Assembly (NCBI GenBank): GCA_032718475.1
Contig: JAUCBJ010003333.1
Span: 62,001-126,000 of the forward strand
Reading direction: 5' to 3'
Length of the DNA stretch: 64,000 nucleotides
Source: Nemertoderma westbladi
Lineage: Eukaryota; Animalia; Xenacoelomorpha
The notes under the pieces were generated by a model, which worked only from the letters and a program-made list of their open reading frames with translations, had not been told where the DNA came from and did not search any database. Shown one piece after another: positions 1,813 to 37,938 of this stretch. Both the position numbers and the translations under genes were made by a program. The stretch's first letter is position 1. Each line of letters starts with the position of its first letter.

Positions 1813-2686
1813 ATTCAATAATCCCCCTAACAATGGCGGCGATCCTGGAACTCAAACTGATCCCGGGTACCGAGGAGGTTGTATTTGTGTCTCACAACCT
1901 CCCCTGTATCATAAACTCATCGACTCTCTACGAAAAGGAATATCTACCACGATCCGGAGGTTCTATCGATTACTACACAGTCGCGGTTTCTTCGGACGGG
2001 AACCGCGTTGCCTCGGGAACCTTGGGGGGGGGGGGGGTCGGTGACAGTCTGGGAGCGGGAAGCGAGCGGTTGGAGGGTCGTAGTGGAGGTACCGGGGATG
2101 GGAGTTAGTGGTTGGTGAGGGGGAGGGTAGAGCGGGAATAGATATAAATCCCTCCAACCGGGACGTCATAGCAACATGTGGGGACGTCGAGGGATTTCTA
2201 TTATATCAATAACTGGTAGGAACTATAAGGTTACGAACTGGGTGGGGCATTCTGGGTGGGTTAAATGTATTCGGTTCGACTCGAACGGGTCCCGGTTGGC
2301 CAGCTGTTCGCGGGATAGAACAGTAAAAGTTTGGCGGACCGGAACCCGGGAGCTGTTGTACCAATACCGGGGGCACAGTGGGAGGGTCTGGGATCTGTGT
2401 TGGGGTCCGGATGGGGAGTCTGTAGTGTCGGTAGGCGAGGGAGGGATGATCCATCGCTTCGTTGTTGGTACAGGGGAGACCTTGTGGAGACAGGAAGCAA
2501 CTCCTGAGGTCCGGAAGATCGTATTGAGTCCCAACGGGTTGAGGATCGATGCTGTTGGGGAGAACGGGTTGATTTATAGCCTATAATAAATTCTGGAAAC
2601 GGGGAGGTTATCAACCGGATTGAAGGAACTGGGAGCCACATCGACGCTGTGGATTTCTGTAAAGACAAACCGGCTTATTATTACAG
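1813..2686 (+). pseudogene. WD40-repeat coding exon with frameshifts (pseudogenised, or homopolymer errors)
   Basis: Acceptor TTTTAG|1813 and donor 2686|GTAATT. WD40 motifs VAVSSDGNRVASG, GHSGWVKCIRFDSNGSRLASCSRDRTVKVW and GHSGRVWDLCW are spread over several frames. One break is in the G-run at ~2023-2037, another near 2580. Confidence 0.75.
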
Positions 2687-3072
2687 GTAATTAATTAATA
2701 GACTTCTTTTATTACAACACGTTCAATTAATTAGTTATGCCTAGGGTCTAATTCAATACCGTACCACGTACCATAGTAAGTAATAATAAATAACACTTAT
2801 ATGAATTAAATACATTAATTATTATTCTCTAAAACAATTTAATTTATTTAATAATTGACTTACCGATATGATGCGGATTAACTGAATATTACCCTTCACT
2901 GCCTCCTGCCAATATTGGGTACCATGGGAACGAAATTAAAATTAGTCTAATTTCAGAATATAGACCACTGAAAATCAGAAGGTATTACAACATAGTCATG
3001 TTGTCAGATAGTTTTAGGTACAGTTTGGATCCGGTAAATGTAACATAAAATAAACTAATAAACCAGCATTTA

Positions 3073-4206
3073 TGTTCGCGCTTTTAGACCTTTAGCAGTT
3101 TTAGTTGTCCTCTTGTTTATAAATCGACTTTAGCCTATATCAATTATTTAATGTACTGAAGTTACATCAGCCGAAGCCAGTCTGTGCGCGATCATTCACC
3201 CACAGTTAAGGGAGACTGGATTCGGGAGCCTTGAGAGTTATTGCAATGTAGATCTACTGTATTATTCGATTGATTGTTACTATATAATCTCTGACAATAT
3301 ATTTACTTTTGGGGAAATATTAACAGTTCCTTTAGGACGTGGCGCTTTAAGTATAAAAACAGAGTTATGACTTATACTAATCACAACTAGATGGCCACAG
3401 AGTTTCGTAAATAGCGCATTCTTTAGGAGATGCTTTATTATCTTTCACACTACTTCACACGACTTCACACTACTGCGCACTAATCTGCCGACCGTCACTG
3501 AATTTGATCATATATAAGGAAGATCGCAACTGACACTTGTAGGGATTATGAAATAGCATTTAATTCACACAAAAACCACTATAATTTAAGTCGCAGTTGC
3601 TACCGGTAACCTGTTCCTCTTACCTTCAGTAATCAAGAAGATTGGGGGTTTTATGATTATTTATCGGTATTCTCCAAATATATCAGCAATATACATCAAT
3701 ATAACAACAATTAATAACAGACCGTAAACAGAAGTAAAATAATGCGGTGAACAGTCAGTATGTGTTACGTAATGCATTGGGTTCAGTAATGAGATAGGTG
3801 GGATAATAGATTTACGTTCTTGTAATCAAAGCCATCTGATGTTTAGGCCAAAGTCTGAAACTTCTACACAGAAGTACAGAAGAATTCCAAGCCGGTTCTG
3901 AGGCTCAGAAAAAGGTAAACAAAGACCGTAATGCATTGTGCGGGTTTCCATAGGCCTCTATTAGACATAAAGTGAAAATTGCTCTGATTGGCTGAGCAGA
4001 ACAAAGAAGTTCCACGTCCACAAAGAATCAGCTGAGAGATTTCGTCATCTGGGCTCTGATTCCTCCCTTTCACGTATTTGGATAAGTTTAGGGCTATTTT
4101 AGAGTATTCTGCGCATTGCGGCAAAAATGACTTGTTATGTCCGCAAAAGCACCTACACTGCGCATTGCGGGAAAAATGACTTGTTATGTCCGCAAAAGCT
4201 TTTACA
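3073..4206 (-). repeat. 3' LTR of BEL/Pao element
   Basis: TGTTCGCG...TTTTACA, highly similar to 24560-25725. Purine-rich PPT-like GGGAGCGG abuts TGTAAAAG on the minus strand (4207-4214). Confidence 0.95.
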
Positions 4207-7200
4207 CCGCTCCCAGAAAATGGGATTTAAGTCTATAAAATATAAAAATCACAGTTTCTAAAATATAAAAATACTCTAAACGATTAGTCCTTCTTACATG
4301 AACGGCGTTTACAAAGTTTTTTGAGGCTAGCAAGAGTCCTTTTCTCTTTGGGTGAGCCACTTTACTAGGAGGGCTATAACTCCTGGGTGAGGGGTGCAAT
4401 ATGATTGCATCGGAAGGTTTAGGGTTACGGTTGGTGTATCCTCCGGTCGAGGTACCCGGTTGATTGATATCAACCTCAGCGGAACGAGGTCGAACAACCT
4501 TTAGAGCGCGTTTCAAGACGGCGGCTCTTACTGGTCCCTGACGAGTCGTTTGCACGAGAGCAGTAGATGGACCGTGAGTAGTGAGAAATTTCCTCGGTTT
4601 GATGGTTCTTTCTAACTCGCGTTCTCGGGCTCTATATTCATAGGGTCGTCTATGAACTTCCTGTAGTTCTGGATGCGAGTTGATGAACAAGTCACCATAT
4701 TCCGGATCTTGACGGATGAAGTTGATCAAGTTATAGGAATTAAGGTCGTTAGGATTAATGTTCCTGAGGTACTTGCGAACAAATTTGGTCGAAATATTCT
4801 CGCCAACACGCTTCATTAGCTCGTACCTCGGTGTGCGAGATTTTTGCTCAACGGAAGCAAAGAGATACGGGTGAAACGCATAGACTCCTTCCTAGGCATG
4901 TCCAGGGTAGTATCGATGATGTGACTCGCAATGGAGATCCGCGTTAGCTTCCCAGGCTCGAATGTAACGTAGGGCAACCATTTCGTCTACACTTTCCAGA
5001 TCTCGGTTGAAAGGGCAATCGAAACTTGCGTGTCCTTTAAACTGGCAATGATGGCATTGAGTCATAAATTGAGGGCAGACTGCGAAGATGTGTAAGTTAT
5101 TGAGTCTACAATACGCACAATAGATCTCCATGGTAGGTTGATCTTGAAAGTAGGAGCAGGGTACGCTGGAGTCCACCGGGGTGAAGTGGTCTCGTGATGC
5201 GCATAATCGGCAACGTTTCATAGAAACATAATTGGCATGCTGATAATCGTATGCGGTGAGACATTGTGGACCTTGATACCATTCCAGGACATAGTCGTTG
5301 TCACTGCTCCTGGGCGCTGTGGGTTGAATTTCCTCGAACTCTAAGCAAATTGGTCCGTCTTCCAATTGCATAGCTGAGGTAGGTGTAGCTGTCTCCTCAA
5401 GCGAACCCACTGTTTGATCTTCCACGATAGAATAACCTGTGGGGATTCAGGGTCTTTGTATAACAGAGGAATGTAAGTTCTGTATACAAACGTCCTTGAA
5501 AATGGCGAATCCAGCGCTGTCTAACTTCTCAGCAGCTGAGTCTCTTAGGCTGAGCTTAGTCAGAGCGCGGTCCTTGAACTGACTATCAACGTTACGGAAC
5601 AAAGTCAGAAAGCGCCTAAAGCATTCGAATCGAATGAATTTATTGTGTTCATCTAGCTTGGCGAGTTTGGTTCCAAGTAACAAGGGATGGGCGCATATAG
5701 TGCGACTGCACACATCGGCTAGCCAACCGGCAAGTGCGGTATTCTCGAAGATAGTGTATATAGCTAATTAGGGACAAAGTGGAACACTCATATGAAGCTA
5801 TAAACGACGCCAGGTGCGGTTAAAGGTCCGTCAAAGTATAATCGAGAATAATGATCTCCATATTCTTGTTGATAGCTGATAGGGTTTCCGACTTTGAAAT
5901 TCCATCCGTATTCTTGGAAGGCAAGATGTCCGATGGAGGTTCGTTGTACTTTATTGATGCCGCTGGATGTATTGGCATACATTGTTCGGAAGAAACCTCA
6001 GCCTTCTGCCCAGGGAGCAATCAGCTGGGTGTCTACGAAAGGATATGGGATATTCTCCAGGTTCCTGAAGTCATTTTGGAGATCTCCATAAACAGCTGAG
6101 CCGATTTTAAGGATTCTTTCGTTAAACAACATCTCGAGCACTGGCTGGGGCAACATCGATCCATCTATACCCATGGCCGGTTTGCGCTCGGTATCGGTGA
6201 CGTAACGCTGTGCGAGTTCGAATTGTCCATGTCGGAGATTCTTTTGTATCTCAGTGAGAGTCTCAAAAGAATAATCGATCACGTCGGAACACGCTCGAGT
6301 AAACACATGGGTAGAACCAGCTAGTCCTCGTATGTGTATCATTTGTGAGGTTCCCAGTACGGCAACCGGAACGCTACCTTCGTTATCGTAAGTGACAACT
6401 CCATACATTTCGATAACGTTAAGAGTCTCGTTCCACTCTTTAGTGGCGTTTTCTATGGTCATACCCACCGGATGCCAAAAGGTGGCGCGTTCGCTAGCGT
6501 TAGGTAGATCGCTATACTTCCGATAATGTGTAGTATACATCTCTACATCTCCATATCACTGTATTCTCTCTTCCTCGAATAATACGTCGAGATTCCAATG
6601 AACTAATCGAGTTTTAATAAATCCATCGAGATTATACGGGGGCATTATATCCTTTTCTATTCTGGAAACATTATAAGGTTTTCTGAATGAGTTTACGTTG
6701 ACCAATTGATCTAAATGTTTCTGTAGTTGTTCGAGTTCAACAAGATCTAGGGGATTTATCAGTGGTAGAAACCTTAAACTGTGCGTAGGATCTTCCTGTT
6801 TCAACATAAAATATTGAGTTAGATTGACGTAATAAGGATGGTATTTGATCCCATAAAATGAGCTCGGTAAAGGTCTGGCGCGTAGGTTGACCTCGTGTAC
6901 CATACGACAGACAAGATCCGCTCGATTGTCCGGAGGTTCAACGAGTATACCGTCGACACGAGCGGCCTCGATTGGCGGACATTGTAACATAGGAGCGTCA
7001 GCGATAAGATCTCTAGATCTTAAGTTGATATCAACCAGTTGGGGTTGTACCGTGGCGAAGAGTTTGTCTCCGAAATGAGGAACCATCGAGGGGTGAATGA
7101 TGGTTTTGGAATAGAGATCAGTCATAAGGATTTGAGCTTCTGGTTGGGCTAAAGCTGCTTCTTCTCTCTCGTCCATTTCGATGTGCTTCTCCTCGAGCTG

Positions 7201-8538
7201 ATTTTCCTCCGCTTGTCGTTGGAAGCGTTCGTCTAAAAACTCTTGTAGAGAGTAGGTTCGTCCAAGTTCGATGTCTTCCTCGAGGTTCTGGATTTCTCGA
7301 TCGAACTGCGGTAAGGCCAATTCCTTTACAGCTTGGACTTGCTGCTGCAATTTACGTTTATCTAAACAATCGTAACTTCCTTTTCCGATCTTTTGCCGAA
7401 TAGCGTCTAACGCGTTTCGTACAACGCTCTCCTCGACCTCGGTGATGGGTTGTATTGGGGTTAAACCGGGACAATTATACGGGTTGAACGGCGATATTAA
7501 ATGTCCGCGTCCCAATCCGGCTAGGTAGGATGAGCGAATATCTAGAGAGCCCACTACCGGAGTGCCACTGATTAATTTTTCGGGTAACACTAGATCTTTG
7601 AACAGTGAGTACAGTTCAGGAGGATCCGTTATACTATTAGGATCAAGAGTCTGAGGTCTCTCCAGGGAATGAGGAGGTCTGACCGAGTATTCCGGAACTC
7701 TGATCATCGGTTTATTTAAGGATCGTTTGAGGCGAGCGAGCGTAGGTGATACGTCGAACAAGTTTCGCTCGAAACTCCCGTAAGTATAGCGAGTAAAACT
7801 GTGTTTAGCACAACGTCTCCGCGGATGTTTATGTCTTTCCGTTTGTTGGTTGGGTCTAGGGCATTCATCGCAATAATACCAAAGACGCACGTCTTGTAGG
7901 GGAAACGCGGGTGATCTTTCTCCAGTTTTACAATATTCCTCCATCTGTTCGAAGCTATCCGTTACAACAGGTAGCGGTCGATCGGCGGTAAGATACATCA
8001 TAGTGAAATAGAGTTGTTTGAGTTCTATCATAGGGTCATTATGTATTCCTTGAGGATATCGAGTTTCTAGATTTTGTTGACTGGCTACATTGAGATATGT
8101 TTCTCTCAAGAATTCCAAATATTCGTTGAAGTCACTTCGTTTATCCGGCTCTTCAATGTCTTCCCTTTCGAGTCGGTTTCGAATAGAATTCTCATGTTCG
8201 ATTCTCAGTTTATCGTTCCGACTCCACTGGGTATGATATTTAAATAGGATCATTTCCCTTTCGGTGTCTACATCGTCCGTGTCGTGTAAATCGATAGGAT
8301 GACCAGTAGTTAAGAAGTCCATATACGTACCATTACGATGCATATAGTGAGTGGTGAATTTTCTATAGTCTAATTCACGCGTGAGCTGTTCCTTTGACAT
8401 TGGCGGTTCGATATAACAGCCATCGTCCTCCGTAGTGGGTTGACTAGCGTCGCCGCTTATTAAACTATCAACAAACGCTTGCAAGGGTAGGGTATATCGC
8501 TCCCTGATACCAAGATCATCTTCTATCAACTCAGTCAT
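4202..8538 (-). pseudogene. BEL accessory ORF (~1,440 codons): unknown/coiled-coil N-terminus, DEDDy 3'-5' exonuclease, triple CCHC zinc knuckle
   Basis: ORFs 8538-6556, 6540-5998 and 5982-5788 share one frame, separated by single TGA codons. ORFs 5713-5447, 5425-4892 and 4816-4202 share a second frame, separated by single stops, so one frameshift lies near 5790. Exonuclease motifs VTYDNE, LPQPVLEMLFNERILKIGSAVYGDL, FVDTQLIA, SIGHLAFQEYGWNFK. Knuckles CRLCASRDH..C, CAYCRLNNLHIFAVCP, CHHCQFKGHASFDCP. Confidence 0.8.
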
Positions 8539-9359
8539 AGCTGCTATATGAGTTTATCGATATTATAATAAATTATATTTAGGCTAGCGGTCGTCGCTGC
8601 CTCCCCCTCAATGCTCCCGGACAGCGCAAGATCCTCAGCGCTGATGTACTGTCGTCGCTGTGCCTCTCGCCAACGTAGTAGCTACACAACGACAACAATA
8701 ACCAGCGCAAGTCACTCCACTGTCCGTCCCAAGGGCTTAGAATTACTTCAGGTTCTTGCTACAGAGGCAAGGTAACTTTCACAACTGCGACTCGCTACTG
8801 TAAACACACTTTAGTAGTAACATTCACCTATAAATGCACAAATTCCACACACCAGTCACAAATTGTACACATTCGGGCAATTTGTCCGTTAGTCAAGTGC
8901 CTTCCAGAATGCCACGTTATTATTATGTATCCCTGGATACTAGCAGGGTGCTATTTATTCCGTATGCTATTCAATGGGGCAAGCTTTCTATTGTTCTTTT
9001 AACTCGCTTCTAATTCTAGCGTGGTTGTTGCTATGGTGACATTATGGAAAGCTAGCAGTAGAATTAGGGTAATTCTCATGCATACAGATCTGGGATGCTA
9101 TTTAATAGTAATTCTTTAATTGTCAATATTCCCCTTTATAAATGATTTTATGAATTTTATCGGCTATTGACTATACATTGGAGATTCTCGCACACTAATA
9201 TACTTAATAGGGTGAATCTCCACTCCCATGATCTATTAATTAATGGAATTTTGGGAATGTTATAAATTGTACAAAATGACAATTTATCAAATTCATGAGA
9301 GGATATGAATTTAAAATTTATTCCCGTGAATTTTATTATTTAATATTAAAATAGACACA

Positions 9360-9750
9360 ATTTTATTCCAGAACATGTCTGGGGACTAGGATCCTTAATT
9401 CTAGGAAATTTGTCTTTTTAAGAGTATCGGTAAGTGCTACGATATCTTAATCGACTAGTATTTTAAAGGATCTGAATTTTAACAGATTTTTGATTTATAG
9501 ATTTTCTTGGTTTACAAACTCCTTAAGAGTTTATTTGTCAGCATTTACTCTATTATAACATTTGTTTTAATAGAATTTATAAATATTTATTAAATATTAA
9601 ATATTTAAGATGGGCACCGATTTATTCCAGAACATGTCTGGGGACGTTAACCACTGATTCTAGAATTTTGTCTTTCAAGTATATCGGTGGGTGCCTCGAT
9701 ATCTTAATCGACTAGAATTGCAGATGGTCAAAGGGTTTAACAGATTTGTT
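9360..9750. repeat. Diverged ~130-bp direct repeat pair in the pol/accessory-ORF spacer
   Basis: TTTATTCCAGAACATGTCTGGGGAC...CGATATCTTAATCGACTAG...TTTAACAGATTT occurs at ~9362 and ~9621. Confidence 0.8.
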
Positions 9751-12700
9751 TTGCGTTTTAACGCTACTGTTAAATGGACATCATTCTACTATATGTATTA
9801 TTTAATATACGGTATGAGAGCAATATTGCAAGAAGCTATGTCAGTGAGAAGAGGCAAGTCGTTTCCAATGTCTACCCAGAGCTTGGTTTAGCCGAGACAC
9901 GAGGATCTGAACTTTGCATTCCTAATACTCTACTTACCAATAATACTACCAATATTACCAATAATAAGTATAGTAGGAGCGGTATTTTGTACTTTAATAA
10001 GTACGGACATTTCATCTTACTGTAGTCACGTATTTATAATATGATACGGACAGTAAGGAAAGAGAAAAAAGAATTATTTCTCGCCGTTAAACTTAAATAT
10101 ATAATGCTAAGTAATTAAGTAATAAACACGAATATATATATTGCACTAATCTACTGAATAATCGCTAAAATAATATTCTACTAAATAAAATTAAAGAAAA
10201 CGATTATAATAATAAAATTACGTAATAATACATATATAAATATAAAAATAATAATAAAATATATATAAAATAATGTAGTCACACACCCACTCCAGACCCT
10301 GTTACGTTGAGGAGTCCCTAGATGTTTGTTGGATTAGGGAGTTGGTCGTAGGAAGAGTATCTTGCCTTCCATAGTTTCCGGATAGCTCTCTGTCTCTTTC
10401 CAGTAAACATAAACGACCAACTGGGCGATTGAGTTGTTGTGTTTCGAATACAATTCCAGGTTTCTTAAAGTTACATCGCATGACGACGAGTTCTACCGAT
10501 CGCACTAAACCATCATCGGATATATGAGTCTCGATGATACGACCTGTCTGCCACCTTTTACGTGGAAGATCTGATTTCACAATAAGGACCATGTCTCCGG
10601 CGCTGACGTTTTCTTTCTGCGCAAACCACTTGGTTCGAAGTTGTAGCATTGGCAGATAATGTTTTTCGAAATGGTCAGCGAAACGACGGGATAATAACTG
10701 CATAAGTTGCCAAGTTTGTCGGCAGTATTCGTCTCCGTCCGTGATTTCCGATTGCGGGAGCATGGCTACAGGTTTCTTTAGTAGGAAATGCGCGGGTGTT
10801 AGTGCTTCTAGGGAGTCGGGACTCGATGAGACTGGCATGAGCGGTCTCTCGTTAAGATATGCGGCGATTTCTTCCATTAACGTCCGCAAATGTTCGTCGG
10901 TGAGATACGCGCGGCACGGCACTATAAAGTGAAATGCGGTCTTCACGCTCCGTATTAATCTCTCCCAACTTCCTCCCCACCAAGGGGCGTCGGCGGCGTT
11001 AAAGGTCCAGCTAGATGCTGTTACCCTTAGATGATCGTCCACCTGTCTTTGGTTCCAATCTTTAACGTAAGCTTTGATCTCATTATTGGCGCCAATGAAG
11101 TTCGTTCCCTTGTTGGATCACATGGTGTTGCTAGTTCCAAAGCGAGTGATCTGTCGGCGTAAACTCAGTATGAAGCTGTTGGTAGATAGATCGTTCACCA
11201 TATCTAGATGGATCGCTCTACAAGTCATACAGACAAAGATGACAAACCATCGCTTGACTATAGTCCTAGCACGATATACTTCAATAGGGCCAAATAAATC
11301 CACACCAGTATTAGTAAAGGGTGGTTCATAGAAGCTTACTCGTTCCCTAGGTAATTCTGCCTCTCGCTGTGTCAAAGGCCTACTGAATGCTTTCCTACAG
11401 GGTATTCAGTTCCTAAGAACTTGGTTCAGAGCTCTACGGGGCTTATGGAAATAATAGCGAGTTTGAATTTCGCTAAGAACTCGTTCTCTACCAGCATGGT
11501 AAAGCCTACCGTGAACATCTACAATCATCTTGATTTATATTTCAAGATTTCTAATGAGTATGGGAAATTTATTGTCAAAGGACAATGGAGCATTAGTTAA
11601 TCTCCCTCCGACACGTATTAACCCATCTATCATTGTGCTAGAGAAACGATCCCTTAAGTGCATCTGTGGATTTCTCAACAACAATCTTCATAGCATTGCT
11701 GGAGTCTCAGTATCTGTTTATTGGTTTCTTCATGCTCTTGGTAACTGATCTTCTCCGTCAGAAACCTATCCGACACTTTGTAAGTGGGCAGATCTTTAAT
11801 AGCATGGACCTTTTCGGATATTGTTGGAGCGGTATCATTAGCGATCTCCGTCCTAGAATAGTGATGATGGAAACATCTCTTGAGATACACAACGGCCTTA
11901 CAAAGCCGATTCCAGGAGCTATAATGATTTATTGCTCTCTGCAGGAGAGGTGATAGTCCTTGCGAGACGTCTGGTGTTCCAGATTTCCAGTCTCTTTCTC
12001 TGATTTCTATATCAGATTTGTTCGTTGCGGGGGAGTTTAGATCCACAGCGTCATCCCTGGAGATGTGTAATACAGACAGATCTATCACGGGTTTAAATAA
12101 CTTTGATTTACTCATCCGGGTTTTAGGTTTAACTTTCTCCGCTCCCTTGGCTTGTCTAATCTCAGCCGTGGTGAGATGAGGAGGCCATTCATCCTCTTCT
12201 TTACTTAGGAAGTCGGGTCCACCAAACCAATCTGGAGTATCTATCAGTTCTTGAGGGGTTGCTCCTCTAGAGGCGATGTCGGCTGGATTAATCGTCCCAG
12301 GGCAATGTCTCCTTTGATCTACATTAGCGACTAAGTATAATGGCTACTCTGTTGGTAACGAAGACGCTGAACTGACAGACTTCATTGGTTATATACTCCA
12401 GAACGAGTAAAGCATCAGTCCAATAGACAGTTTTCTCCAGTGGATAGTCGATCTGTTCTGTTACATTCCGGCCGATGGCTGTAGCGTATAGAGCCGCCTT
12501 TAACTCCGCTCGAGGAACTCGTAGTTTGTTGTTTATCAAGGCCTTAGAGGTAACCAAGGCAACTTTAATTCCATCTGGAGTTTCAACCCTCAGGTAGGCT
12601 ACTATACCTATTCCCATATCGCTGGCGTCTCCAAACACATGGAGTTGATAGGAATACGTGGGGAGAACGTGACCAAAATATGAACGGGAAATCGAAAAAG

Positions 12701-15048
12701 TTCTCGATGGATGGTAGAGAATCTTCCCATTTCATCCACTTCTTTAGTAGTTCTCCCTTAAGTGGATCATCCCACGAGTGGTTTTCAAGCCACATTTGTT
12801 GCACCAAGCTCCGAGCAACTAATATAACTGGGCTAATAAATCCCAATGGATCGAAATAAGTGCTCAGGATACTTAGACAAATCCGTTTAGTTCTAACTGG
12901 ATTATCTCGCTGTTTTAACTGGAAAAACAAGATATCTCTCTCCGTGTCCCATTTTAAACCAAATGTTTTGGTTTCTGGAAGATCGTCCTTGATAAGGTCC
13001 AGATCTTTAACACCTCGGTCTTCTACCAGGATCAATTCCAGAAACTCACGGGAGTTACTAGTGAATTTGGTTAACCGAAATCCACCGCGTTGCAAGCACT
13101 CCACCGTTCCCTTGGCAACATCAATGGCTTCTTCCACCGATGGGAGGGACTTTAAATTGTTGTCCATGTATATATCCCGTTTGATGTTGTCGATAACCGC
13201 TTTAGAAAAGACGTCACAGTTGTCATCGGCAGTGGTACGCACTACCGAACAAGCGTTCGAGGGGCTCGAGATGATCCCGAAAGCCTGGATGGTCATCCAG
13301 TACTCCACCGGTTTTCGGTTGAGGTCTCCTTCAGGCCACCACAGAAATCGTAGGCTGTCTCAATCCCTATCCTGCGCCTTGACTTGTAAGAACATGCCTT
13401 CTATATCTGAAGCGAAAGCGATAGAATATTGCTGCAGACTTAATAATATTCCCAACAAGGATTGGAGTAAGTTGGGTCCCGGCAACAGTTCTGAGTTCAG
13501 GGATTGACCCATGTAAAGGGCGGAGCCGTCGAACACTACCCAGACTTCGTTGGGTTTACCAGGCTTGGGAACGTATTGATGTGTTAGATAATACGTCCTC
13601 TCCGTTATGGGTGTTTCTTCCGGTACTCGCTCCGCGTATCCTTTATTGATAAATTTTTTCAGCTGGGTTTTATACATTTCCCTGGCTGGAACGTTGGCTG
13701 TAAGACGCCGATGTAGTTGCGCGATTCTTTTTTCCGCTAAAGTTCGGTTATTTATAAAATTGGGTTCTCGCTGTCTGAAAGGAAGACCAATCTCATAGCG
13801 ACCTTCGTCTTTCAGATAATGAGTTGTCGTTTCCTGAATCTGCTTGGCTCCTCTTCCTCGACGGACAAAGCTTTGTTGTAGGAATTAGGCTCTACGGCTT
13901 CTTGAGTAAAGAATCATGCGGCGTGTTCATCACGGATTTTGTTGTTGTATCGATCTATCACTTCGTTTAATTCGTCATTATATGTGAATTGTCCGCCATG
14001 TTGATCGATGAGATGGCACAAGTTGACTTGGTTTACCCAAGTTTGGTTTTCGGTGAGGAGGTCGATTGTATTTTCCTCGTCATATAATTGGTTAATGTCG
14101 TCATTATCTGAGGAGTATGGTGTTCCCTCAGTGGTGGTTTCTCCCTCACTGATTTCTTCTTCCCATTCACTCACCTGATGTATCCTGTCATTAGGGAGTC
14201 TTTCCATTAGGGTTCTATGGGAAGGTCCAGTGAAGTACCAACCTACTCTCGTTCTTCCCGCGTACGTCTGCAATGGTTGCGGTCGAGCAGGCCGTTTTTC
14301 TAATGTCTCAAGCGCTTCGTGCGCATTTTGGCCGATTAATATCTGTACCCCAGGATAATCGGTGTGGAATCTAGGTATATCATGTTGCTGGGTAAAATGG
14401 TCTTCATCCCAGTTGTAAGGCTCCACTTGGCTAGTAGCAAAGTTCTTTATCGCCACCATTTTTACCGACCTTATGCTATGTTCTCCTAGTTCATCCTGGG
14501 GAGTGGACAACGCACCCACGTAGTAATCTATAGCTACTGTGGACTTCCAAACCTGCATAATTCCTGAAAGGTTCAACTTAGTTCGGAACTTGGGTTGTTC
14601 AGCAAAGATGTCTTCGGCTAGTTCTTTGTCGATGAATGTAACCGTGCTGCCAGAGTCAAGTAGGGCATTTACTATCAGGCTCTTCCCTAGCCCATGGACT
14701 CTCAGCTGCACCACAGGAAATTCCCGGATTCCGAGAGAGGAAGTTGGCGCTTTCCAAGATGGTTGTCGGTCCGGAATAGTCAAACGAGGATCTTCCATTT
14801 CTGATTCAGTCTCGTACGTAAGCGCTCGATACACATCGGTGTTTATCATATAACAGGATTCATTTTTGTCAGAGAATTCGTCCGTGTAAAATCCTTCCAT
14901 CTCAGAGCTGTGGTCAGTGTCGTTCACATCACTGAATTGGACATGTAGTTCGGGCTCACTTACCTGACTCGGGTGGGTTCTGTCAAATTCTGTGTGCAGC
15001 AAAATATGATGTTTCGCGCCGCACTTAGCACACCTCGCGTCTGAGTAA

Positions 15049-15423
15049 GGGGCCGTCCAAGTATGACGTCCGCACTTTTCTCCAAAATGTTGACCCCCTC
15101 CCTCCCCTAAATCAGATGTCATCAGATAGGCGTTGACACCCCCCCTCCCCTAAATCAGATTAAAAAAAATTTCGCTTCCTAATCACTGAAACATGGTGTC
15201 TGGTATCTGAAACAGAAGGTCCTGCTATGGGCCTTCTGGGGCTTCGAACAATTAAAATAGGCAAGCTATTTACTCTTCTGCTATATCTCTTTTAGCACCT
15301 ATAAATGAACATGCTGACGTCAGATTTTGGCTGACCCCCTACCCTCCCTTCATCAGCATGTCATCAGATTTTCCCAACCCCCCTCCCCACCCTAAAGTGC
15401 TGACGTCATACTTGGACGGCCCC
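15049..15423. mobile_element. PIF/Harbinger-type MITE inserted in the Gag zinc knuckle
   Basis: 22-bp TIR GGGGCCGTCCAAGTATGACGTC; TAA duplicated at 15046-48 and 15424-26. Excision restores in-frame GHQRRTCYSDARCAKCGAKHH. Confidence 0.9.
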
Positions 15424-17479
15424 TAACAGGTCCGTCTTTGATGTCCTCGTCTGAGAAAATTATAACACAACCGCTTATCCCACATGACATCACGTCTATC
15501 CTTAAGGGATTTCTTCAAGAATTCATCACACCCACTCAAGCGATGTGGCCCATCGCACAATGCACATTTGGGTTTGATGTTACTTAATTTAACCTGTGTT
15601 GTGTTGTGCACACTTGTTCTTTCATCGGGCTTTCTTCGATGAACTCTCTTAGGAGACGTAGGAGTTGTTGTTACCTGTTCTCTCCTGTCACTGGTTCGAG
15701 ACTTAGATTTACTTACGTCTTTCCGAGTTTTATTGACATAATAAGATCTTTCAGTGTCTTTCCCGCTGTTCTCCTCGTATGAGGTTTGGCTTTCGCCGTC
15801 GTCTGTATAACACACTGGTGTTACCTTTCTCCTAGAAACGGGTTTTTCACTCACCTTACTTTCCGGTGTCTTCTCTCTGGACTGCTTTAGGAGCTGTAAT
15901 CTTACCTCTCCATTTAAGAATGACATGAGATCAGCCATGGTAGGGTCTCTTTGTTGCTGGTCCATCATATAGAGAACCTTTTTGTCCCAACGAGTACCTG
16001 CTCCACCCTTTGGCAAAGTAGATGCTACGGCTCCAACAACCATAGAACTCTGGTATTCCTGAGACTTACCTAACCAATCTAGCTGTCTACAGATCTCCTG
16101 GATCTCATCGGAAAACTCGATAATCCCGCTACTAAGAAACTTTCGGGGCGCTACTAATTTCGCATACATATATTCGCCTAGCTATGTTAGTCCTATTACC
16201 ATGCCTGATGTTTAGTGTATCCCAAACTTGTCTTAATCCATCTGGATGTCCAATAAACTTTAACGCCATTAACTTGGGAGGTCCTTCCAAGCACTCGATG
16301 AGGAATCTAAGTTTCTCTCCGTTAGATAGTACAGAGTTCTGTATGTTATCTTTATAATATTCATTAAAAGGTAACCATTTCATCTCATCTCCATTAAACT
16401 TGACGACCTCTCCCACCTTTACCGCTTGATGGGCTTTGGTTCTAGCCATTTGATGTGTAAAACTTTCTTGAGCCATCGTATTATTTAATATCGAGTTATC
16501 GGTATATAAATTTCCCGGATTATGATCAGATCTGTATGGGATATCATTATCAACAGGTTTATAATTACCCTTAATAGGGTTTACTATAGGGGTTTCTACT
16601 TCACTAGCAGTATATATGCGTGTAGGCTCCACACCTCGCGCATGAAATACTTCAGACCTAACAGGTTGACACATTGTTACAGGGGGTGGTGGTATACCCA
16701 TTTGTATATTTACTAATTTATCGCGCTCTAAAGCGATACTTTGTTGCACTTCTTGCAACTCTAACCTACTCTCTCTCACTGTTCCCTTTAACTGCTGAAC
16801 AGTCCCTTCCAAATCTCGGACCTGCTGGGAAGAAAGTCGTTTATGTTCCTCCAGCTGTCCAAGCAGGCGATTCATCCCCCGCCGTCCCTCGTCCACCCAC
16901 TCAACCACTGCCGTGGGAGTCACCAACGTGGTAGCTGGGTGACACGTGGGGATGATGGGAGACAAGTCATTTATGTCTTGCTCGGCGTCCAGGACTGGGA
17001 GTGATTCAGGGACTAGTCTACTGGGCACAGGTAGTTTAGTACTGTGCAAAGGGAATTTAAAGTTAGGTTCTGGAAGTACAGGTGTCTCTATCACAGAGGG
17101 AGTGGCTTTGAGGACAGGCCTAATTATTTCGGGCTCATCTACTATAGTAGGGAGTCTTTCTACTCTAATAATTTGGTCTGTAGGCTCAGGATTACTTAAA
17201 TCTACACTAGCTAGTTGCCTTCTCACAGCCGGAGGCAAATTAGGCAACTTCTGCCGGTGTGGCGTTCTTCTACGTCCGCTGGAACGAGTTTTATTTCCTC
17301 TACCTTCAGGATCTGTTGTATCGCCTTCATCAGAGGATGTAAATCCCTGTCTCCTGGGAGTAGATCGACTCAGCAGCTGCATCTGGGTAGCTGTTCTCTG
17401 TTTATTTAAGTAATCTTGCTTCGCTTGAAGATTTTCCAACCCTAGTTGGGTTGTCTCTTCAGATGCTTGTCTTACTGCT

Positions 17480-17725
17480 TCAGCCACTGCCGCTTTTCTT
17501 TCAGCCTCTGCCACTGCTGCTTTCCTTTCAGATTCTGCTGCTGCCGCTGCCGCTTTCCTTTCAGATTCTGCCGCTGCCGCTGCTGCTTTCATTTCAGATT
17601 CTGCCACTGCTGCTGCCGCTTTTCTTTCAGCCTCTGCCGCTTTCCTTTCAGATTCTGCCGCGACCGCTGCCGCTTTTCTTTCAGCCTCTGCCGTTGCCGC
17701 TTTCATTTCAGATTCTGCCGCGGCT
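17480..17725 (-). repeat. Coding tandem repeat (~33/27 bp) encoding KAAAAAAESER units in the Gag N-terminal extension
   Basis: Repeated TTTCAGATTCTGCC(GCT)n; translates to an Ala/Glu/Lys-rich helical tract. Confidence 0.9.
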
Positions 17726-19056
17726 GCTGACCTTCGGTCTTCTATTTTGCTTTTTCTTTATCTGCTCTTCTTGGTCCATAGCGATGAGGATGCTTTCATC
17801 ATATTTAGCTTGCTCCGCGGCTAATATTTCTGCATCTAACGAGTCCAACACAAATTTGGCTCCCTCACTATTAGGGTGGAGTCCAGCTAGCCGTCTCCTT
17901 AGCTCTTTGTCACCTATAAATCGTTGATAGTCTGACAGATAGATGTCAATAGCATCCTTCTTCTGAGGTTTCTCGGATATAGCTTCGCCTTCCACCTGAG
18001 AAAAGGTAGCGTCTGTTGATTCTCCGTGGGTCACGCGTTCAGTTAGCTGAACTTTCCATTGTGTCGTTCCTTGGACTTTAAGACTCACCCGTTGGAACCA
18101 AGTCTTTACGGCCACTTGCAACGAGGTGTCTTGGCTTCTCTTCGAAGCTTCCTCAAAGGCTGAAAGGATTAGTCTGATCCGTAAAATTCGTTCTCGCACT
18201 TGATAAAGCAGCTCTCCCTGCTCTTGAGGTCCTTGATGTTGTTGAAATAGGTGTTCTTCTAATCGCTCCAAAGAACTGAAGAATCCCTGGACATATCCTG
18301 CTGCCGACCTCTTCCACACAGCTGGATCCCGCATGTCCCTTACTACTCCCATCCTGTATAAGTCCTCCCAGGCAGCTTCTGATAAGTTAAACGGGAGTCT
18401 GGGTCCAGGGAAGTTCCATTGCGCCTCTACAATAGACCTCAGTTCCTCCATTGTATATCCCGCATAACTGTCCCTGGTCGATCGCTTACTTCTCGCCCAA
18501 TCGATTTGATGTTCCACCACAGCTATCAACACTCTAGTGAGTACGGCTCCAGGAAGAATTAGAAGTGGATCTGGATAAACCGCTTCTGCCATCCTTGCTC
18601 CGATCTCGGGTGTCAACTCTTCGGTGTCTGAACTGCTAGAGTTATCATGCCTTTGAGAAATAAGTTCTCGGTTCGGGTGTTGCTGCTGTTTAACAGCTGC
18701 CTCTTGGTCCCGCTTAACTTGAGCCCTAGTGCCTATGATAGACCTATGGTGCTTTACTAGCCTAGGGTCTGATACTACTACAACTGTAGGGATGATCTTT
18801 CTTACAGTAGGAAGGGACTTGGACTTCGGTCTCAGATGTTCTATACTCTTATCTGAGTCACAGACTGTTCTTTCTAGGAGACTATCTGACAGTGTTTGCT
18901 TTGTGTCAGCCATGATTTATTTTACAGTTGAATGCCTACTGCTATAACGACAGTTAAAGCAAGTCTAGTAATTCAGTATCAACTGTAAGCCTAGTAATTA
19001 ATTACCGATACCGTTACTCAGTGTAACGTGATATATATATAATATATTAAAATACA

Positions 19057-19293
19057 GGTATACACTTTATAGTATATATATAAGTATTATTACAGACTAG
19101 GTTTAGTCACAGAATACCGGTATATAATTTCAGCCTAAATTTATGTAAATAAATATAATAAGCCTACCGCTGTACCGTAAATACCGGTATACACCTATAG
19201 TATATATAAGTATTATTATAGACTAGGATTAGTTCCATAATACCGGTATATAATTTCAGCCTAAATTTATATAAATATATATAATAAGCCTAC
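19057..19293. repeat. Tandem ~129-bp duplication in the BEL 5' leader
   Basis: GGTATACAC...TACCGGTATATAATTTCAGCCTAAATTTAT...TAATAAGCCTAC occurs twice. Confidence 0.85.
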
Positions 19294-22003
19294 TGTGAAT
19301 ACCAGTAATGTCAATTATTTATAATAACTGAATTTCTGGGTTACTTCCCTTTTACTTATTACTGTTATCAAGCAGTATTCCAACTGATATTAAGACCTAA
19401 TTGATGTATACTGTAACATGCCTACTATTTTATAAATCTGTTTGAGTTGATTTATAATATATATATACTCGTACAAGGGTTTTTGACAATATTTGAAATA
19501 AATGTTATTATTTCTGGATAAGGAGTCACTACACAGAAGCTGAACGCTCTCAGTGGAGTGCTACTTGTTGGACACTAAAACGAATAATTCTACTTTACTA
19601 AGTTACTTATCACTACAAATTACTTACAATTACAGTTTGAGATTACAATCTCTAAATAAACAATAACAAGTTACACATACAATTTTTTAGGGTAATTTTA
19701 CAAGAAATCTATAAACCAGCCTAACAAGGAGTTAGAATTTCTGGTTCTTTCAAACTGACAGGAAACTATGGTATTTGAAAACAATAAAGCAGTAGTAAGT
19801 AAGTTGTGTTGTCCAGATAAGAAAATACCACCGTCTGACGACTTATAGTCTTAGCTCTATAAGTACTACGTTATGTACCCGGAGTGTCCTTACCTAGAGG
19901 TTAATTACCGAAGCCAACCAGAGCTAACGTGCCTATTAACCACGTTACAACACAAATATACTGCCTACACACTAAATTACTTTCGGAAAGCACTGTACGC
20001 TAACCCCAAATTAGGTACAAGTACGTATACAACAAATAACCAGCAGTTAAATATACTTCAACAGCCAAAAGAACCACGGTATCTGCTGGAGTGACCGGAG
20101 CACAAAATCACCAGTCTTTACCTACGCCAAGCAGCCCTGATGTAGTACCGGGATTAATTTAACTATAACGGTATGTATAACAAGCACAATTACTGTAGGA
20201 AAAAACTTGGGGAGTTGGAGGTTGCGAATACTCACATAGACTCTGAATAATAAATATTACGCTACCCGTGCAGACTATACAAACAAAACACAGACCAAAT
20301 GCTGGCAGACTACTGTCAAGCCTAAATAAACTACAGTATATGCAGACTCAGAAATGGTTAGTTAGTAGGCGTTCTAACCGAGTAGTACAACTTATTCTTT
20401 TGGGGAGATTTACCTTACAACACTGGATGCCCCCACCTTCCTAACTAGCACTTTATCGGACAGACACTCTACACACACTGCAATCGCTCCAGACCTAACA
20501 ACAGTTAGACAACAATCCGGCCTACAAATTATTTATACAATCTGAGCAGGCTTACACGCCTTCTGCTCAATATTACACTTGCCGATAAATAAAACTGACA
20601 GACATAAATAAGCTCTAAAAGAAATAAGGGGTGTACAGTCCCTACTCTCTTAAACTGCCTACCAATATACAATATCACAATCGAAATAATACTGGTACCG
20701 GTAAGTACCGTTTCGGGTGTTTGGGCAGTTAGGCCTACAGTTTACTGTCCGACCGGTACATTCGACTTTATTGCCTACGGCGCAATAAAGAAACTTAAGG
20801 GGGGGGGGGGGGGGTACACCCCCCTATGGACCTTTTTTGCAAATGGCTATAATTTCTGCTTGTGTATAATTTTGTATGTTTTATACCTTTCGGGGGGGGG
20901 GGGGGGGGATTAACATATGGCCAAAGATTGGGTTCAAAGAAAAATTTTCAAATTTGCGTCGCCCTCTAGCGGCCACCATAAAAACACTACTAGTCTCACA
21001 ATTTTGGGCGAACATTTTCGAAACTTGGTTTTTCTGAATCAGCATCCTCGGCTCCACAAAACTTATCGGTTACATTTTTTTATTTAGGTCTTAAATATTT
21101 TTCAAATATTATTAACTAATATTAATTATTACTTAATTAATAGATATTAACTAATTTCAAGAAATTAATATGGCACAATTCAAAATTCTAACCGATAACT
21201 TTTGATCAAAACCCGAAAAGAAATCAAACAAAAAAAAAATTTCGAAAATTGGTTAAGAAATGGCTGAGTAGTACAGTACAGGCCACCAGAAAACGCAGAT
21301 TTGTACAATTGTGAACACATTTTATCAATTGTGTACCAGTGTAATGTAATGTTGCTGAACGGGACAATTGAACATAATTGAACATAATTGAATTGGCAAC
21401 AACCAAAATTTTTTCGCCAAAGGATACAATTGAATACTTTTGAAACGCTTAGTAATCTGGAAACTCTCTGTAGTTTGCCGCGAACGCAGCTGCAGCTGGA
21501 AATGCGATAAGGATTTTGTTTACCTTTATAGTGTGCGGTTAATAGTGTCTAGTAGGCAGGCCTATAGTTAGAGATGTTAAGCCATCTTCTGGTGTTTCTC
21601 TGTGCCCTCTCGGTGTCAGACTAGTGGCGCGACATCTCCCTGCACTAAATTAATTATTCAATGGTCTAGGCTCGTCCATCCATATACCCACCCACTCCCA
21701 TACACTCCATGAACCTCCATGTGGTCTTGTATGTAGTTCTCTCTCTACCAATACAGCCCATTGATAGTAACAATGTGTTGGCAAGCTGTATTTTTCGAGG
21801 TGTTTGTTATTATACATTTATTATAGGAAGGGATCTTGGGGTCTTAGCCTCGAATGATAAGTTTATTTTACCGAAAATAACTTATCTTTTATTGGCGCAA
21901 TTGTAGGACTAATCCCATCACATGCGTACTTTTTAACCAGATGGTGTACAAATTTAGGAATCGCGTAATTTTTTCTTGAAATTAATATCTCATATCTCTC
22001 CAA

Positions 22004-22046
22004 ACCACGTACGCGTTTCGACCTTACTGGGTCTCATCAGCGTGGT
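22004..22046 (-). ncRNA. Minimal type I hammerhead ribozyme, copy 1
   Basis: Minus strand ACCACG-CUGAUGA-GACC CAGUAA GGUC-GAAA-CGC-GUA^CGUGGU. Intact core, 4-bp stem II, 6-bp stem I, palindromic ACGCGU stem III. Confidence 0.9.
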
Positions 22047-22110
22047 GTCGGATTCGAACCTGGGACCTCGAGGTGGAAGCCGAGACCACAACCACTAGGC
22101 CACAGGTTCT
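22047..22110 (-). promoter_or_regulatory. tRNA-derived internal Pol III promoter directly 5' of the hammerhead (repeated at ~22453-22516 and ~22865-22928)
   Basis: A box TGGCCTAGTGG, loop CTTCCAC (TCC, Gly-like) and B box GGTTCGAATCC at tRNA spacing; no acceptor stem. Confidence 0.82.
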
Positions 22111-22409
22111 TGAGATATGGAGTATTAATTTCAAAGCCAGCTGCCATTTTTTTAGCCCCTGATTTTTTATTATTGATAGTAACAATGTGTTGGCAAGCTG
22201 TATTTTTCGAGGTGTTTGTTATTATACATTTATTAGGGATCTTGGGGTATTAGCCTCGAATGATAAGTTTATTTTACCGAAAATAACTTATCTTTTATTG
22301 GCGCAATTGTAGGACTAATCCCATCACATGCGTACTTTTTAACCGGATGGTGTACAAATTTAGGAATCGCGTAATTTTTTCTTGAAATTAATATCTCATA
22401 TCTCTCCAA

Positions 22410-22452
22410 ACCACGTACGCGTTTCGACCTTACTGGGTCTCATCAGCGTGGT
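22410..22452 (-). ncRNA. Minimal type I hammerhead ribozyme, copy 2
   Basis: Identical to copy 1. Confidence 0.9.
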
Positions 22453-22821
22453 GTCGGATTCGAACCTGGGACCTCGAGGTGGAAGCCGAGACCACAACCA
22501 CTAGGCCACAGGTTCTTGAGATATGGAGTATTAATTTCAAAGCCAGCTGCCATTTTTTTAGCCCCTGATTTTTTATTATTGATAGTAACAATGTGTTGGC
22601 AAGCTGTATTTTTCGAGGTGTTTGTTATTATACATTTATTATAGGAAGGGATCTTGGGGTCTTAGCCTCGAATGATAAGTTTATTTTACCGAAAATAACT
22701 TATCTTTTATTGGCGCAATTGTAGGACTAATCCCATCACATGCGTACTTTTTAACCGGATGGTGTACAAATTTAGAAATCGCGTAATTTTTTCTTGAAAT
22801 TAATTTCTCATATCTCTCCAA

Positions 22822-22864
22822 ACCACGTACGCGTTTCGACCTTACTGGGTCTCATCAGCGTGGT
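22822..22864 (-). ncRNA. Minimal type I hammerhead ribozyme, copy 3
   Basis: Identical to copy 1. Confidence 0.9.
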
Positions 22865-24559: not shown

Positions 24560-25725
24560 TGTTCGCGCTTTTAGACCTTTAGCAGTTAAACCTGCCAATT
24601 TTAGTTGTCCTCTTGTTTATAAATCGCCTTTATCCTATATCAATTATTTAATGTACTGAAGTTACATCAGCCGAAGGCAGTCTGTGCGCGATCATTCACC
24701 CACAGTTAAGGGAGACTGGATTCGGATTCCTTGATAGTTATTGCGGTGTAGACCTAAACTGTATTATTCGATTGATCGTTACTATATAATCTCTGACAAT
24801 ATATTTACTTTCGGGGAAATATTAACAGTTCCTTTAGGACGTGGCGCTTTAAGTATAAAACAGAGTTATGACTTATACTAATCACAACTAGATGGCCACA
24901 GAGTTTCGTAAATAGAGCATTCTTTAGGAGATGCTTTATTATCTTTCACACTACTTCACACGACTTCACACTACTTCACACTACTGCGCACTAATCTGCC
25001 GACCATCACTGAATTTTATCATATATAAGGAAGATCGCAACTGACACTTGTAGGGATTATGAAATAACATTTAATTCACACAAAAACCACTATTATTTAA
25101 GTCGCAATTGCTACCGGTAACCTGTTCCTCTTACCTTCAGTAATCAAGAAGATTGGGGGTTCTATGATTATTTATCGGTATTCTCCAAATATATCAGCAA
25201 TATACATAAATATAACAACAATTAATAACAGAAGTAAAATAATGCGGTGAACAGTCAGCATGTGTTACTTATGCAGTTATGAAAGTCAGACAGTCTGGTG
25301 AGTTCATAAGTGGTTGGTTCGTCAGATAATAGATTTACGTTCTTGTAATCAAAGCCATCTGATGTTTAGGCCAAAGTCTGAAACTTCCAAAACAGAAGTA
25401 CAGAAGATTCCAAGCCGGTTCTGAGGCTCAGAAAGGTAAACAAAGACCGTAATGCATTGCACGGGTTTACATAGGCCTCTGTAAGACATAAGGGGAAATC
25501 GCTCTGATTGGTTGGACGAACAAAGAAGTTCCACGTCCACAATGAATCAGCTGATAGATTTCGTCATCTGGGCTCGGATTCCTCCCTTTCACGTAGTTGG
25601 ATAGATTTAGGGCTATTTTAGAGTATTCTGCGCATTGCGGCAAAAATGACTTGTTATGTCCTCAAAAGCACCTACACTGCGCATTGCGGGAAAAATGACT
25701 TGTTTTGTCCGCAAAAGCTTTTACA
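24560..25725 (-). repeat. 5' LTR of BEL/Pao element
   Basis: Same termini as 3073-4206, with scattered substitutions and indels (e.g. extra AAACCTGCCAAT near 24588). Confidence 0.95.
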
Positions 25726-25922
25726 ATTTAGCTTAATAATATTATGTCCATTCAGTTATCTGTTAGGTTGTTTGTTATTGGTTTGTATCAATGGCGTTTT
25801 AACCAAGGCGTCCTAATACAGGCCATGCAGCCGAGATTTAGGTAAAATTAGCGTAGGCTGAAAGTTTTACAATGGGCAAAATAGGAATTCCAATGAATAT
25901 TATGGGTAGTAAGACAATGTTT

Positions 25923-32039: not shown

Positions 32040-32327
32040 ACACATTAGTGATTATTATTATTATGCAATAATTTTTAATTAAACTGCATTTTCCCTCCCG
32101 GCTAATCAACCAATCAATAAACCGAATTTAGGCTATTTCTCAGTTTAAGACCTGTATTATTTTTGAAAATATCTTATATATATAATCTCTTGCTTTAATC
32201 ACAATTAATCATTTGTAATGGTTTTAGTTTAAAAGTTTTTACTTTGTTTGTTTGATTTACAATAAAATAAATTAAATAATGTCTTCTGATTCCGATATGG
32301 TTATGCCAATAGTAAGGCATTCATTTT

Positions 32328-32720
32328 TTGCAGAAGATGGTCAAGCCTATATTGTTTGATTATACAATTTACCGTCAGGGAGATGATAAATATAAAATTG
32401 AGTTTTCTGAAAAAGCCAGGAAAGTTTTAAGCTCAATTGATATTGATGCTTCTGATAATAGTATTCATCTCTTAGATTACAACCTGAAAGTTGAGCATGA
32501 GGGAAAATTAATCAACATCTTACTATTATCCATGATAGAGGGGTTTATTGTTATTACACAATACAACGAAGCTGGTGAAAAGTTTGAAATACGGCTAAAT
32601 CGGCATAGCCCCTACGAAATTATGTCTTTCTTTATTGTAATGATTTCAAAGGAATCCTTTATCGAACCTGAAGAATCAACAGATAATGTTGAATATGTTG
32701 ATAATATCATTGATTCTTGA
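32328..32720 (+). CDS. Polinton hypothetical protein (possibly frameshifted from ATG 32279)
   Basis: 130-aa ORF in AT-rich context with acidic C-terminus; no motif recognised. Confidence 0.5.
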   Translation: MQKMVKPILFDYTIYRQGDDKYKIEFSEKARKVLSSIDIDASDNSIHLLDYNLKVEHEGKLINILLLSMIEGFIVITQYNEAGEKFEIRLNRHSPYEIMSFFIVMISKESFIEPEESTDNVEYVDNIIDS

Positions 32721-32883
32721 CTTTTCCCTCTATATTATAAATATTTTATGATTATTTATAAAATTTTAATGTTTTTAAATAATCGAAAATTGTAGTAGTA
32801 TTTGTATATACAGTATAACAGTTTTGTTTGTTGTTGTTGTGTATTGAGGTAATTATTTTCAATTTACTTTAAAATTTGGAAAA

Positions 32884-34234: not shown

Positions 34235-34271
34235 TTAATATTTTGTAACAATTTTCAATAATGTTGCAACA

Positions 34272-34655: not shown

Positions 34656-34657
34656 TA

Positions 34658-37937: not shown

Positions 37938-37938
37938 A

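Follow-up and report, generated by a model that had tools for sequence, protein, structure and literature searches.

Retroelement-borne genes for DEDDy-type 3'-5' exonucleases have been described in bdelloid rotifers where, as reported in the sections cited, a third open reading frame (ORF3) of the long terminal repeat (LTR) retrotransposons Juno and Vesta and of the Athena Terminons encodes a protein with 'strong homology' to DEDDy enzymes, one catalytic acidic residue being altered, DEDD to DEED (Rodriguez et al. 2017, PMC5408684). Terminons are, in the section cited, giant retroelements of up to 40 kb (PMC6431247). In a cellular enzyme, Trypanosoma brucei RNase D (TbRND, PDB 7c42), RNA is bound by CCHC fingers at nucleotides 5-9, counted from its 3' end, and trimmed by the Exo domain, a combination which its authors term very unusual in the passages concerned (PMC7797062). 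The third genes in print for BEL/Pao retrotransposons, whose usual length is given as 4.2-10 kb (PMC3118150), are, as far as the cited excerpts go, env-like glycoproteins (F-like in Roo, gB-like or chuvirus-like; PMC13524379; PMC3118150). Here we analyse a BEL/Pao element within 64,000 nucleotides of Nemertoderma westbladi DNA (GCA_032718475.1, contig JAUCBJ010003333.1, positions 62,001 to 126,000; this whole stretch is the window, and its coordinates are used throughout). Its own ORF3 very probably belongs to a family of DEDDy exonuclease homologues that is detectable by sensitive methods and invisible to Pfam.

The element lies on the minus strand, spans 22,653 bp and is a decayed copy. It is a BEL/Pao retrotransposon by the hallmark domains Peptidase_A17, DUF1759 and DUF5641, together with its LTRs and target-site duplication: PF05380, PF03564 and PF18701 all scored above their cut-offs and are collinear on that strand, in the order gag, protease, reverse transcriptase (RT)/RNase H and integrase. 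Peptidase_A17 was found in two broken frames that adjoin each other (12324-13359; Pfam E 2e-16 and 3e-15), with a weak aspartic protease signal, Asp_protease_2, at 13914-15149; no RVT or rve model matched the broken pol frames of the element at E<=0.01 (Pfam). The two LTRs are 91% identical by BLAST with gaps counted, and their Kimura two-parameter distance is 0.055 over 1,117 aligned columns. At 22.7 kb the element is more than twice the usual BEL/Pao length, the excess coming from a 5.6-kb leader, a 1.75-kb spacer and ORF3 itself (~4.3 kb), which is located between the integrase C-terminal domain and the 3' LTR in the same orientation as gag-pol.

The open frame of ORF3 begins at 8553 and its first ATG lies at 8538; the reading phase stays the same as far as about 5800, and a second phase continues from 5797 to 4214. 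The first phase comprises the open frames 8553-6559 (665 aa), 6555-6001 (185 aa) and 5997-5791, and the second 5797-5771, 5767-5450, 5446-4895 and 4891-4205; the five stops are TGA 6558-6556, TGA 6000-5998, TAA 5770-5768, TGA 5449-5447 and TAG 4894-4892. An open stretch of 665 codons, and 1,436 sense codons with only five stops, are far beyond chance. Under neutral decay since insertion, when half the LTR divergence is taken as the copy's own decay and the LTR transition/transversion ratio is applied, 4.94 stops are expected in 1,441 ORF3 codons as compared with the five seen. The decay of ORF3 thus fits a gene that was still whole when the copy inserted and has drifted since. No membrane-like segment was found in ORF3, as judged by the highest 19-residue Kyte-Doolittle mean (1.06), and an env or fusion glycoprotein was ruled out as its identity, since there is no hydrophobic segment and no match to a glycoprotein family in Pfam.

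These results bear on an initial annotation, made by a model from the sequence alone, which had joined six fragments into a single frame, broken only by single stops and one frameshift, and had placed it between pol and the 3' LTR of a giant, duplication-bounded BEL/Pao element, with no obvious transmembrane segment. The frame and the frameshift were recovered, while the stops number five and not four, TAA 5770-5768 being the additional one. The placement agrees with the position of DUF5641, the LTR pair and the ATTTA on both flanks, the class and size of the element with its hallmark Pfam domains and measured length, and the lack of a transmembrane segment with the hydropathy profile.

An exhaustive HMMER search with ORF3 of 1.84 billion (1.84e9) representative proteins gave a sole match, P0004 (E 6.3e-4 library-wide), an intact 648-aa singleton from a 9.4-kb contig of an ENA metagenome assembly. 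As MAFFT misplaced the second-phase pieces, pairwise BLASTP was used instead: P0004 and the window sequence align at E 6e-14 with 31% identity over 112 residues (~27-31% overall), and collinear matches were obtained for the ExoIII piece (E 0.032) and for the knuckles (E 3e-5). Similarity to P0004 stops in the first phase at ...YFDGPL and restarts in the second at VPLCP. The layout of P0004 is that of the C-terminal half of ORF3, with an exonuclease-like domain (~43-250), a long linker, three CCHC knuckles (501-553) and a tail. No relative emerged when the 921-aa read-through, the 288-aa domain and P0004 served as queries in word-indexed protein searches, which covered proteins of nearly the same length, and no relative of ORF3 was found in scans of viral, metagenome and genome contigs. 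This two-member family is probably common among unannotated invertebrate repeats.

A profile of the two sequences was aligned with E. coli RNase D by hhalign. D62, E64, D130, Y229 and E233 of P0004 fell on D28, E30, D85, Y151 and D155 of RNase D, which we take from the structure literature to be its catalytic DEDDy residues, and window ORF3 carries D, E, D, Y and E at the same five columns. In the ExoIII motif, Y-x3-D, the Tyr is present with the right spacing and the acidic residue is Glu in both proteins. The alignment (score 39.1, 172 columns, probability 73%) was obtained with a low alignment threshold, the default run aligning ExoII only (P 1e-3). Among 200 column shuffles, none reached 39.1 (mean 13.0, standard deviation 2.2, maximum 20.6), and the reversed profile scored 11.2 against RNase D; the true alignment lies ~11.7 standard deviations above the shuffle mean. 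The proposed homology of ORF3 and P0004 to these enzymes is founded on hhalign and this shuffle control, below the threshold of any curated family. An insertion separates ExoII from ExoIII and, in the window, a further one is located between the third strand and ExoII.

Other libraries gave leads of lower strength. The RNase D model TIGR01388 (NCBIfam) matched the window segment LPQPVLEML...VDTQ at E 0.003, a weak lead, and the homologous segment of P0004, at ExoII, is the one matched below cut-off by PF01612, one of only two Pfam matches of that protein. The exonuclease family phrog_1674 (PHROGs) matched the window ExoI segment weakly (E 0.19-0.45). In an Atlas feature search, 10 of the 10 best clusters carry PF01612 (score 0.84), which we treat as a lead only.

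The second recognizable part of ORF3 is the knuckle array. The family profile matched the nucleocapsid of human immunodeficiency virus type 1 (HIV-1) at E 3e-4 in a PDB sequence search, where the TbRND knuckle region was weak (E 2.8). A weak zf-CCHC_3 match was all that Pfam gave on the ORF3 fragments, and no HRDC domain was found by Pfam in ORF3 or P0004. Three CCHC knuckles had been annotated initially; three are present, two of them canonical and one irregular. The exonuclease motifs listed in that annotation are present too (YDNEG 6390-6376, YGDLQ 6090-6076, VDTQ 6036-6025 and SIGHLAF 5937-5917), with the correction that SIGHLAF..YG..FK is not the catalytic ExoIII, because the Y-x3-E of ExoIII lies past the frameshift. 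Its central claim, a DEDDy exonuclease and zinc-knuckle protein in the env position, is borne out by the homology to P0004 and by the controlled RNase D alignment. The DnaQ-like profile or structure match which it had called for was obtained through P0004 only, since the window's own sequence failed in Pfam, PDB and AlphaFold; it is this relative that makes the DEDDy link demonstrable. Taken together, the observation is confirmed and the interpretation partly supported: the identity of the protein is supported as a sequence-based assignment, and its function is proposed.

Several points weigh against this assignment or limit its reach. No match to PF01612 was found in window ORF3 at E<=10, and that of P0004 reached 11.9 bits against a gathering cut-off of 23.6 (E 0.2). 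NCBIfam gave no match for P0004, and PDB sequence searches, by phmmer and with the family profile, gave no exonuclease. The AlphaFold model of the window domain, made from the single sequence, is unreliable (predicted local distance difference test, pLDDT, 28.7) and Foldseek returned noise for it, with no exonuclease and a best E of 0.12. The model of P0004 with the window as second row is unreliable as well (pLDDT 32.9). Low-confidence models can yield meaningless Foldseek matches, and it is as supporting and not decisive evidence that we report the search with the P0004 model against 350,542 PDB chains, in which 11 of the 11 matches at E<=1e-3 were EXD2 or T. brucei RNase D; the remaining rows listed were Egalitarian, RNase D, EXD1, Rrp6, At5g06450, RICE1, Rhodococcus diDNase, Nibbler and WRN. 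That the window's own poor model returned noise indicates that these uniform exonuclease matches were not automatic. The family is known from two members, window ORF3 and P0004, and in both the last catalytic Asp is replaced by Glu, so that activity is not assured. The present copy cannot make the ORF3 protein, and its pol is dead too. Finally, P0004 starts at about the position of the window's TGA 6558-6556, with weak similarity continuing for ~23 residues upstream of it; the ancestor of ORF3 may accordingly have made either one protein of ~1,440 residues or two proteins in the same phase.

We consider it reasonably likely that ORF3 of this BEL/Pao element, combining an RNase D/EXD2-type (DEDDy) exonuclease with nucleocapsid-like knuckles, acts as an accessory nuclease trimming the 3' ends of the element's own nucleic acids. 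The protein would be catalytically active, and its knuckles would feed the substrate to the active site, as in T. brucei RNase D, by holding single-stranded RNA or complementary DNA (cDNA) from the replication complex of the element itself; the 3' end of the strand so held would be trimmed by the exonuclease domain. As the knuckles are of the nucleocapsid kind, the favoured substrate would be the RNA or cDNA of the element in its particle, rather than host RNA.

The initial annotation had named the countering of piRNA silencing and the proofreading of cDNA as possible roles. The substrate could instead lie in host defence, with a knuckle-guided exonuclease attacking the small RNAs that silence the element, that is, the 3' ends or precursors of Piwi-interacting RNAs (piRNAs) or small interfering RNAs (siRNAs). 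The small-RNA pathway proteins EXD1, Nibbler and RICE1 are indeed among the fold neighbours of the P0004 model, and the element family is very abundant in its host (see below), as expected if silencing were escaped. However, the list of neighbours is headed by EXD2 and T. brucei RNase D, not by Nibbler or EXD1, and nucleocapsid-like knuckles point no less to RNA of the element itself than to host RNAs. Such counter-defence appears rather unlikely to us.

A further proposal concerns size. Since the BEL/Pao element described here measures 22.7 kb as compared with 4.2-10 kb, and the rotifer DEDDy Terminons reach 40 kb, the exonuclease might assist the reverse transcriptase of the element in proofreading or repair, removing mismatched or stalled cDNA 3' ends and so enabling oversized retroelements. 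We hold this to be doubtful. If true, it would be the retroelement counterpart of nidovirus ExoN, associated with RNA genomes of very large size, and three retroelement classes would each have acquired such an enzyme independently.

An inactive protein was considered as well, namely an exonuclease-like RNA-binding adaptor resembling EXD1 and Egalitarian, whose fold would be kept for binding RNA or partner proteins. Glu at the last acidic position in both members, the presence of Egalitarian and EXD1 among the fold matches and a divergence too great for Pfam would all agree with it. Inactive DEDDy relatives, however, typically lack several catalytic residues. Here D, E, D, Y and an acidic residue are kept in two proteins of only ~27-31% identity, and conservation of the five positions at such low identity would argue for catalysis. 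An inactive adaptor is accordingly improbable in our judgement, and the accessory nuclease remains our preferred interpretation.

The place of ORF3 as a gene of the family was examined in the host species. Four DNA runs, from three studies of one species, supplied contigs that were placed on 3050-9500 at an identity of at least 85%: 34,629, 22,890 and 11,972 contigs in runs X1-X3, and 430 in the fourth. They covered 30 of 30 bins, which take in the LTR, ORF3 and part of the spacer. The LTR-ORF3-spacer stretch is a high-copy repeat of the host species and not a one-off; its linkage to pol was read in this copy. The 1.75 kb of non-coding spacer between ORF3 and pol could raise the suspicion that ORF3 was captured only once or belongs to a foreign element inserted into this BEL/Pao copy. 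Against this stand the gag-pol orientation of ORF3, which runs directly into the polypurine tract and 3' LTR, its coverage by tens of thousands of contigs from three studies, a decay equal to the expectation from LTR age and a distant relative, P0004, with the same layout. Neither a second LTR pair nor terminal inverted repeats are present around ORF3, and we therefore rejected the reading that a DNA transposon or another LTR element is nested there. We regard a one-off origin, which the initial annotation had named as the outcome that would undo its reading, as very improbable. No second ORF3 copy was found within the 64-kb window. Among the 40 of 955 difference sites listed for the contigs none lies at the ORF3 stops, which says nothing either way.

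As a separate observation, contigs of runs X1-X3 jump from 4436-4635 to 7167-7178. Both the exonuclease domain and the knuckles fall within the ~2.5-2.7 kb of ORF3 that is skipped, a pattern suggesting that the host species harbours derivatives with internal deletions.

That ORF3 is a real gene resembling exonucleases by chance would agree with the lack of any curated profile at threshold and with the unreliable structure models, but is scarcely credible given the distance of the RNase D alignment from its shuffles, the five aligned catalytic positions, fold matches that are uniformly exonucleases or exonuclease-like proteins, and matches from three independent libraries on the right segments.

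Table 1. Features of the BEL/Pao element and of the neighbouring Maverick/Polinton-like element (window coordinates)
Feature	Position	Strand	Basis or remark
5' LTR, TG...CA ends	24560..25725	-	BLAST vs 3073-4206; boundaries from sequence reading
3' LTR, TG...CA ends	3073..4206	-	Repeat detection and BLAST; boundaries from sequence reading
Target-site duplication ATTTA, 5 bp	3068..3072 and 25726-25730	.	Sequence reading
gag-like frame, DUF1759	16132..17757	-	Pfam PF03564, E 1.2e-5
gag CCHC knuckle, single, own to gag	15566-15528	-	Motif reading
pol, protease to RT/RNase H region, several broken frames	12324..15149	-	Pfam
pol, integrase C-terminal domain DUF5641	10302..11117	-	PF18701, E 1.6e-20
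A+T-rich spacer, pol to ORF3, 1.75 kb, no long frame	8554..10301	-	ORF list, repeat search
ORF3, ~1,440 codons, X at breaks in read-through	4214..8538	-	Six-frame translation
ORF3 N-terminal ~660 residues, C-x2-C...H...C stretch and charged segment	6559..8538	-	
ORF3 phase-shift zone	5785..5815	-	Frame-wise similarity to P0004
Putative DEDDy-type 3'-5' exonuclease domain	5720..6447	-	Cut by TGA 6000-5998, frameshift near 5800 and TAA 5770-5768
ExoI D-x-E	6379..6387 (D 6387-6385, E 6381-6379)	-	Aligns with RNase D D28, E30
ExoII Asp, within KIGSAVYGDL	6082..6084	-	Aligns with RNase D D85
ExoIII Y-x3-E, second phase	5744..5758 (Y 5758-5756, E 5746-5744)	-	Aligns with RNase D Y151, D155
CCHC zinc-knuckle array, three knuckles	5015..5212	-	Motif reading, P0004 similarity
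Irregular knuckle CRLCASRDH...C, C-x2-C-x4-H-x9-C	5212-5156	-	
Canonical CCHC knuckle CAYCRLNNLHIFAVC	5119-5075	-	
Canonical CCHC knuckle CHHCQFKGHASFDC	5056-5015	-	
ORF3 C-terminal tail into polypurine tract and LTR, true protein end uncertain	4214..5014	-	No Pfam family match
Maverick/Polinton-like: Pox_A32-like ATPase frame	33554-34231	+	
Maverick/Polinton-like: rve integrase	34850-35701	+	E 7e-11
Maverick/Polinton-like: adenovirus-type cysteine protease	39740-40216	+	
Maverick/Polinton-like: protein-primed B-family polymerase signal	45076-46122	-	Beside long frames 43588-47743 (-)

The remaining parts of ORF3 and of the element carry few recognizable features. The 665-aa N-terminal part of ORF3 has no relative in Pfam, PDB phmmer or protein-library searches including the 1.84 billion representatives, the Atlas search being uninformative; its charged segment is probably a coiled-coil. 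The spacer contains an imperfect 127-bp direct repeat (9337-9462 and 9595-9719, 79% identity) that might belong to an internal regulatory region. The leader extends from the 5' LTR to the first long frame (18917-24559), with tandem repeats of 406-412 bp at 21760-23091, and a run of 16 C adjoins the 5' LTR (24530-24545). A 402-codon frame matching no family (17711-18916, minus strand) precedes gag, and a tandem repeat of 27-33 bp in 8 copies (17452-17762), inside the gag-like frame, gives gag a repetitive peptide segment.

Elsewhere in the window, a Maverick/Polinton-like element occupies 32300-48960. Pieces of host genes were also observed: a WD40 exon at 2131-2583 (plus strand), a long WD40-like frame at 54271-56598 (minus strand) and an APAF-1 helical domain at 63519-63998 (minus strand; PF17908, E 3e-24). 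By these pieces the host is an animal that possesses an APAF-1-like gene, and the retrotransposon may lie in or near a gene of this kind.

How ORF3 relates to known proteins depends on the part compared. With the cellular PF01612 enzymes EXD2, WRN, RNase D and Rrp6 it would share the order and spacing of ExoI, ExoII and ExoIII and intermediate motifs of the LDTQ and LG..L.K type, and it differs from them by its sub-threshold Pfam score, by Glu for the last Asp and by its insertions. TbRND is, to our knowledge, the only solved protein with an Exo domain and CCHC fingers combined. As in ORF3, an Exo domain is followed by a C-terminal CCHC array in one polypeptide, and TbRND is one of the two best Foldseek matches of the P0004 model (E 2.5e-4). 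However, from what the cited passages describe, TbRND is a protist's cellular enzyme that trims the U-tails of guide RNAs in the mitochondrion, with a 28-residue linker and four fingers, whereas ORF3 is transposon-borne, with a linker of ~175 residues (~265 in P0004) and three knuckles. We would thus call the architecture of ORF3 analogous to that of TbRND, from which it departs by its long linker, without claiming membership; the shared arrangement may be convergent.

Among BEL/Pao elements, ORF3 occupies the place of the env-like third genes, between pol and the 3' LTR. In contrast to those genes as the cited excerpts present them, it has no signal peptide, membrane segment or glycoprotein similarity, and putatively encodes an enzyme with knuckles instead. 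Full-text literature searches for an exonuclease in BEL/Pao gave incidental co-occurrences only, and the word 'exonuclease' occurs 0 times in the accessible part of a BEL/Pao survey (PMC3118150).

The closest parallel remains that of Juno, Vesta and Athena. In their published descriptions, as far as cited here, these too have an RNase D-like DEDDy gene downstream of pol, no env features, an altered acidic residue and a giant element. DEDDy genes on retroelements are thus in print for gypsy-like and Penelope-like elements of rotifers, and BEL/Pao would be a third retroelement class. If this holds, recurrent acquisition of 3'-5' exonucleases would be a general theme of retroelement biology, and the question would be sharpened of what benefit an exonuclease brings to a reverse-transcribing element, end processing, fidelity and escape from small-RNA silencing being the candidates. 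What is new here is a form so divergent that standard annotation misses the exonuclease, fused to nucleocapsid-like knuckles in an oversized element. Compared by description with the cited parts of the rotifer reports, where the hosts of the gene are Ty3/gypsy-like and Penelope-like elements, ORF3 of N. westbladi resides in a BEL/Pao element, is invisible to Pfam, and carries both the nucleocapsid-like knuckles and an orphan N-terminal part of ~660 residues.

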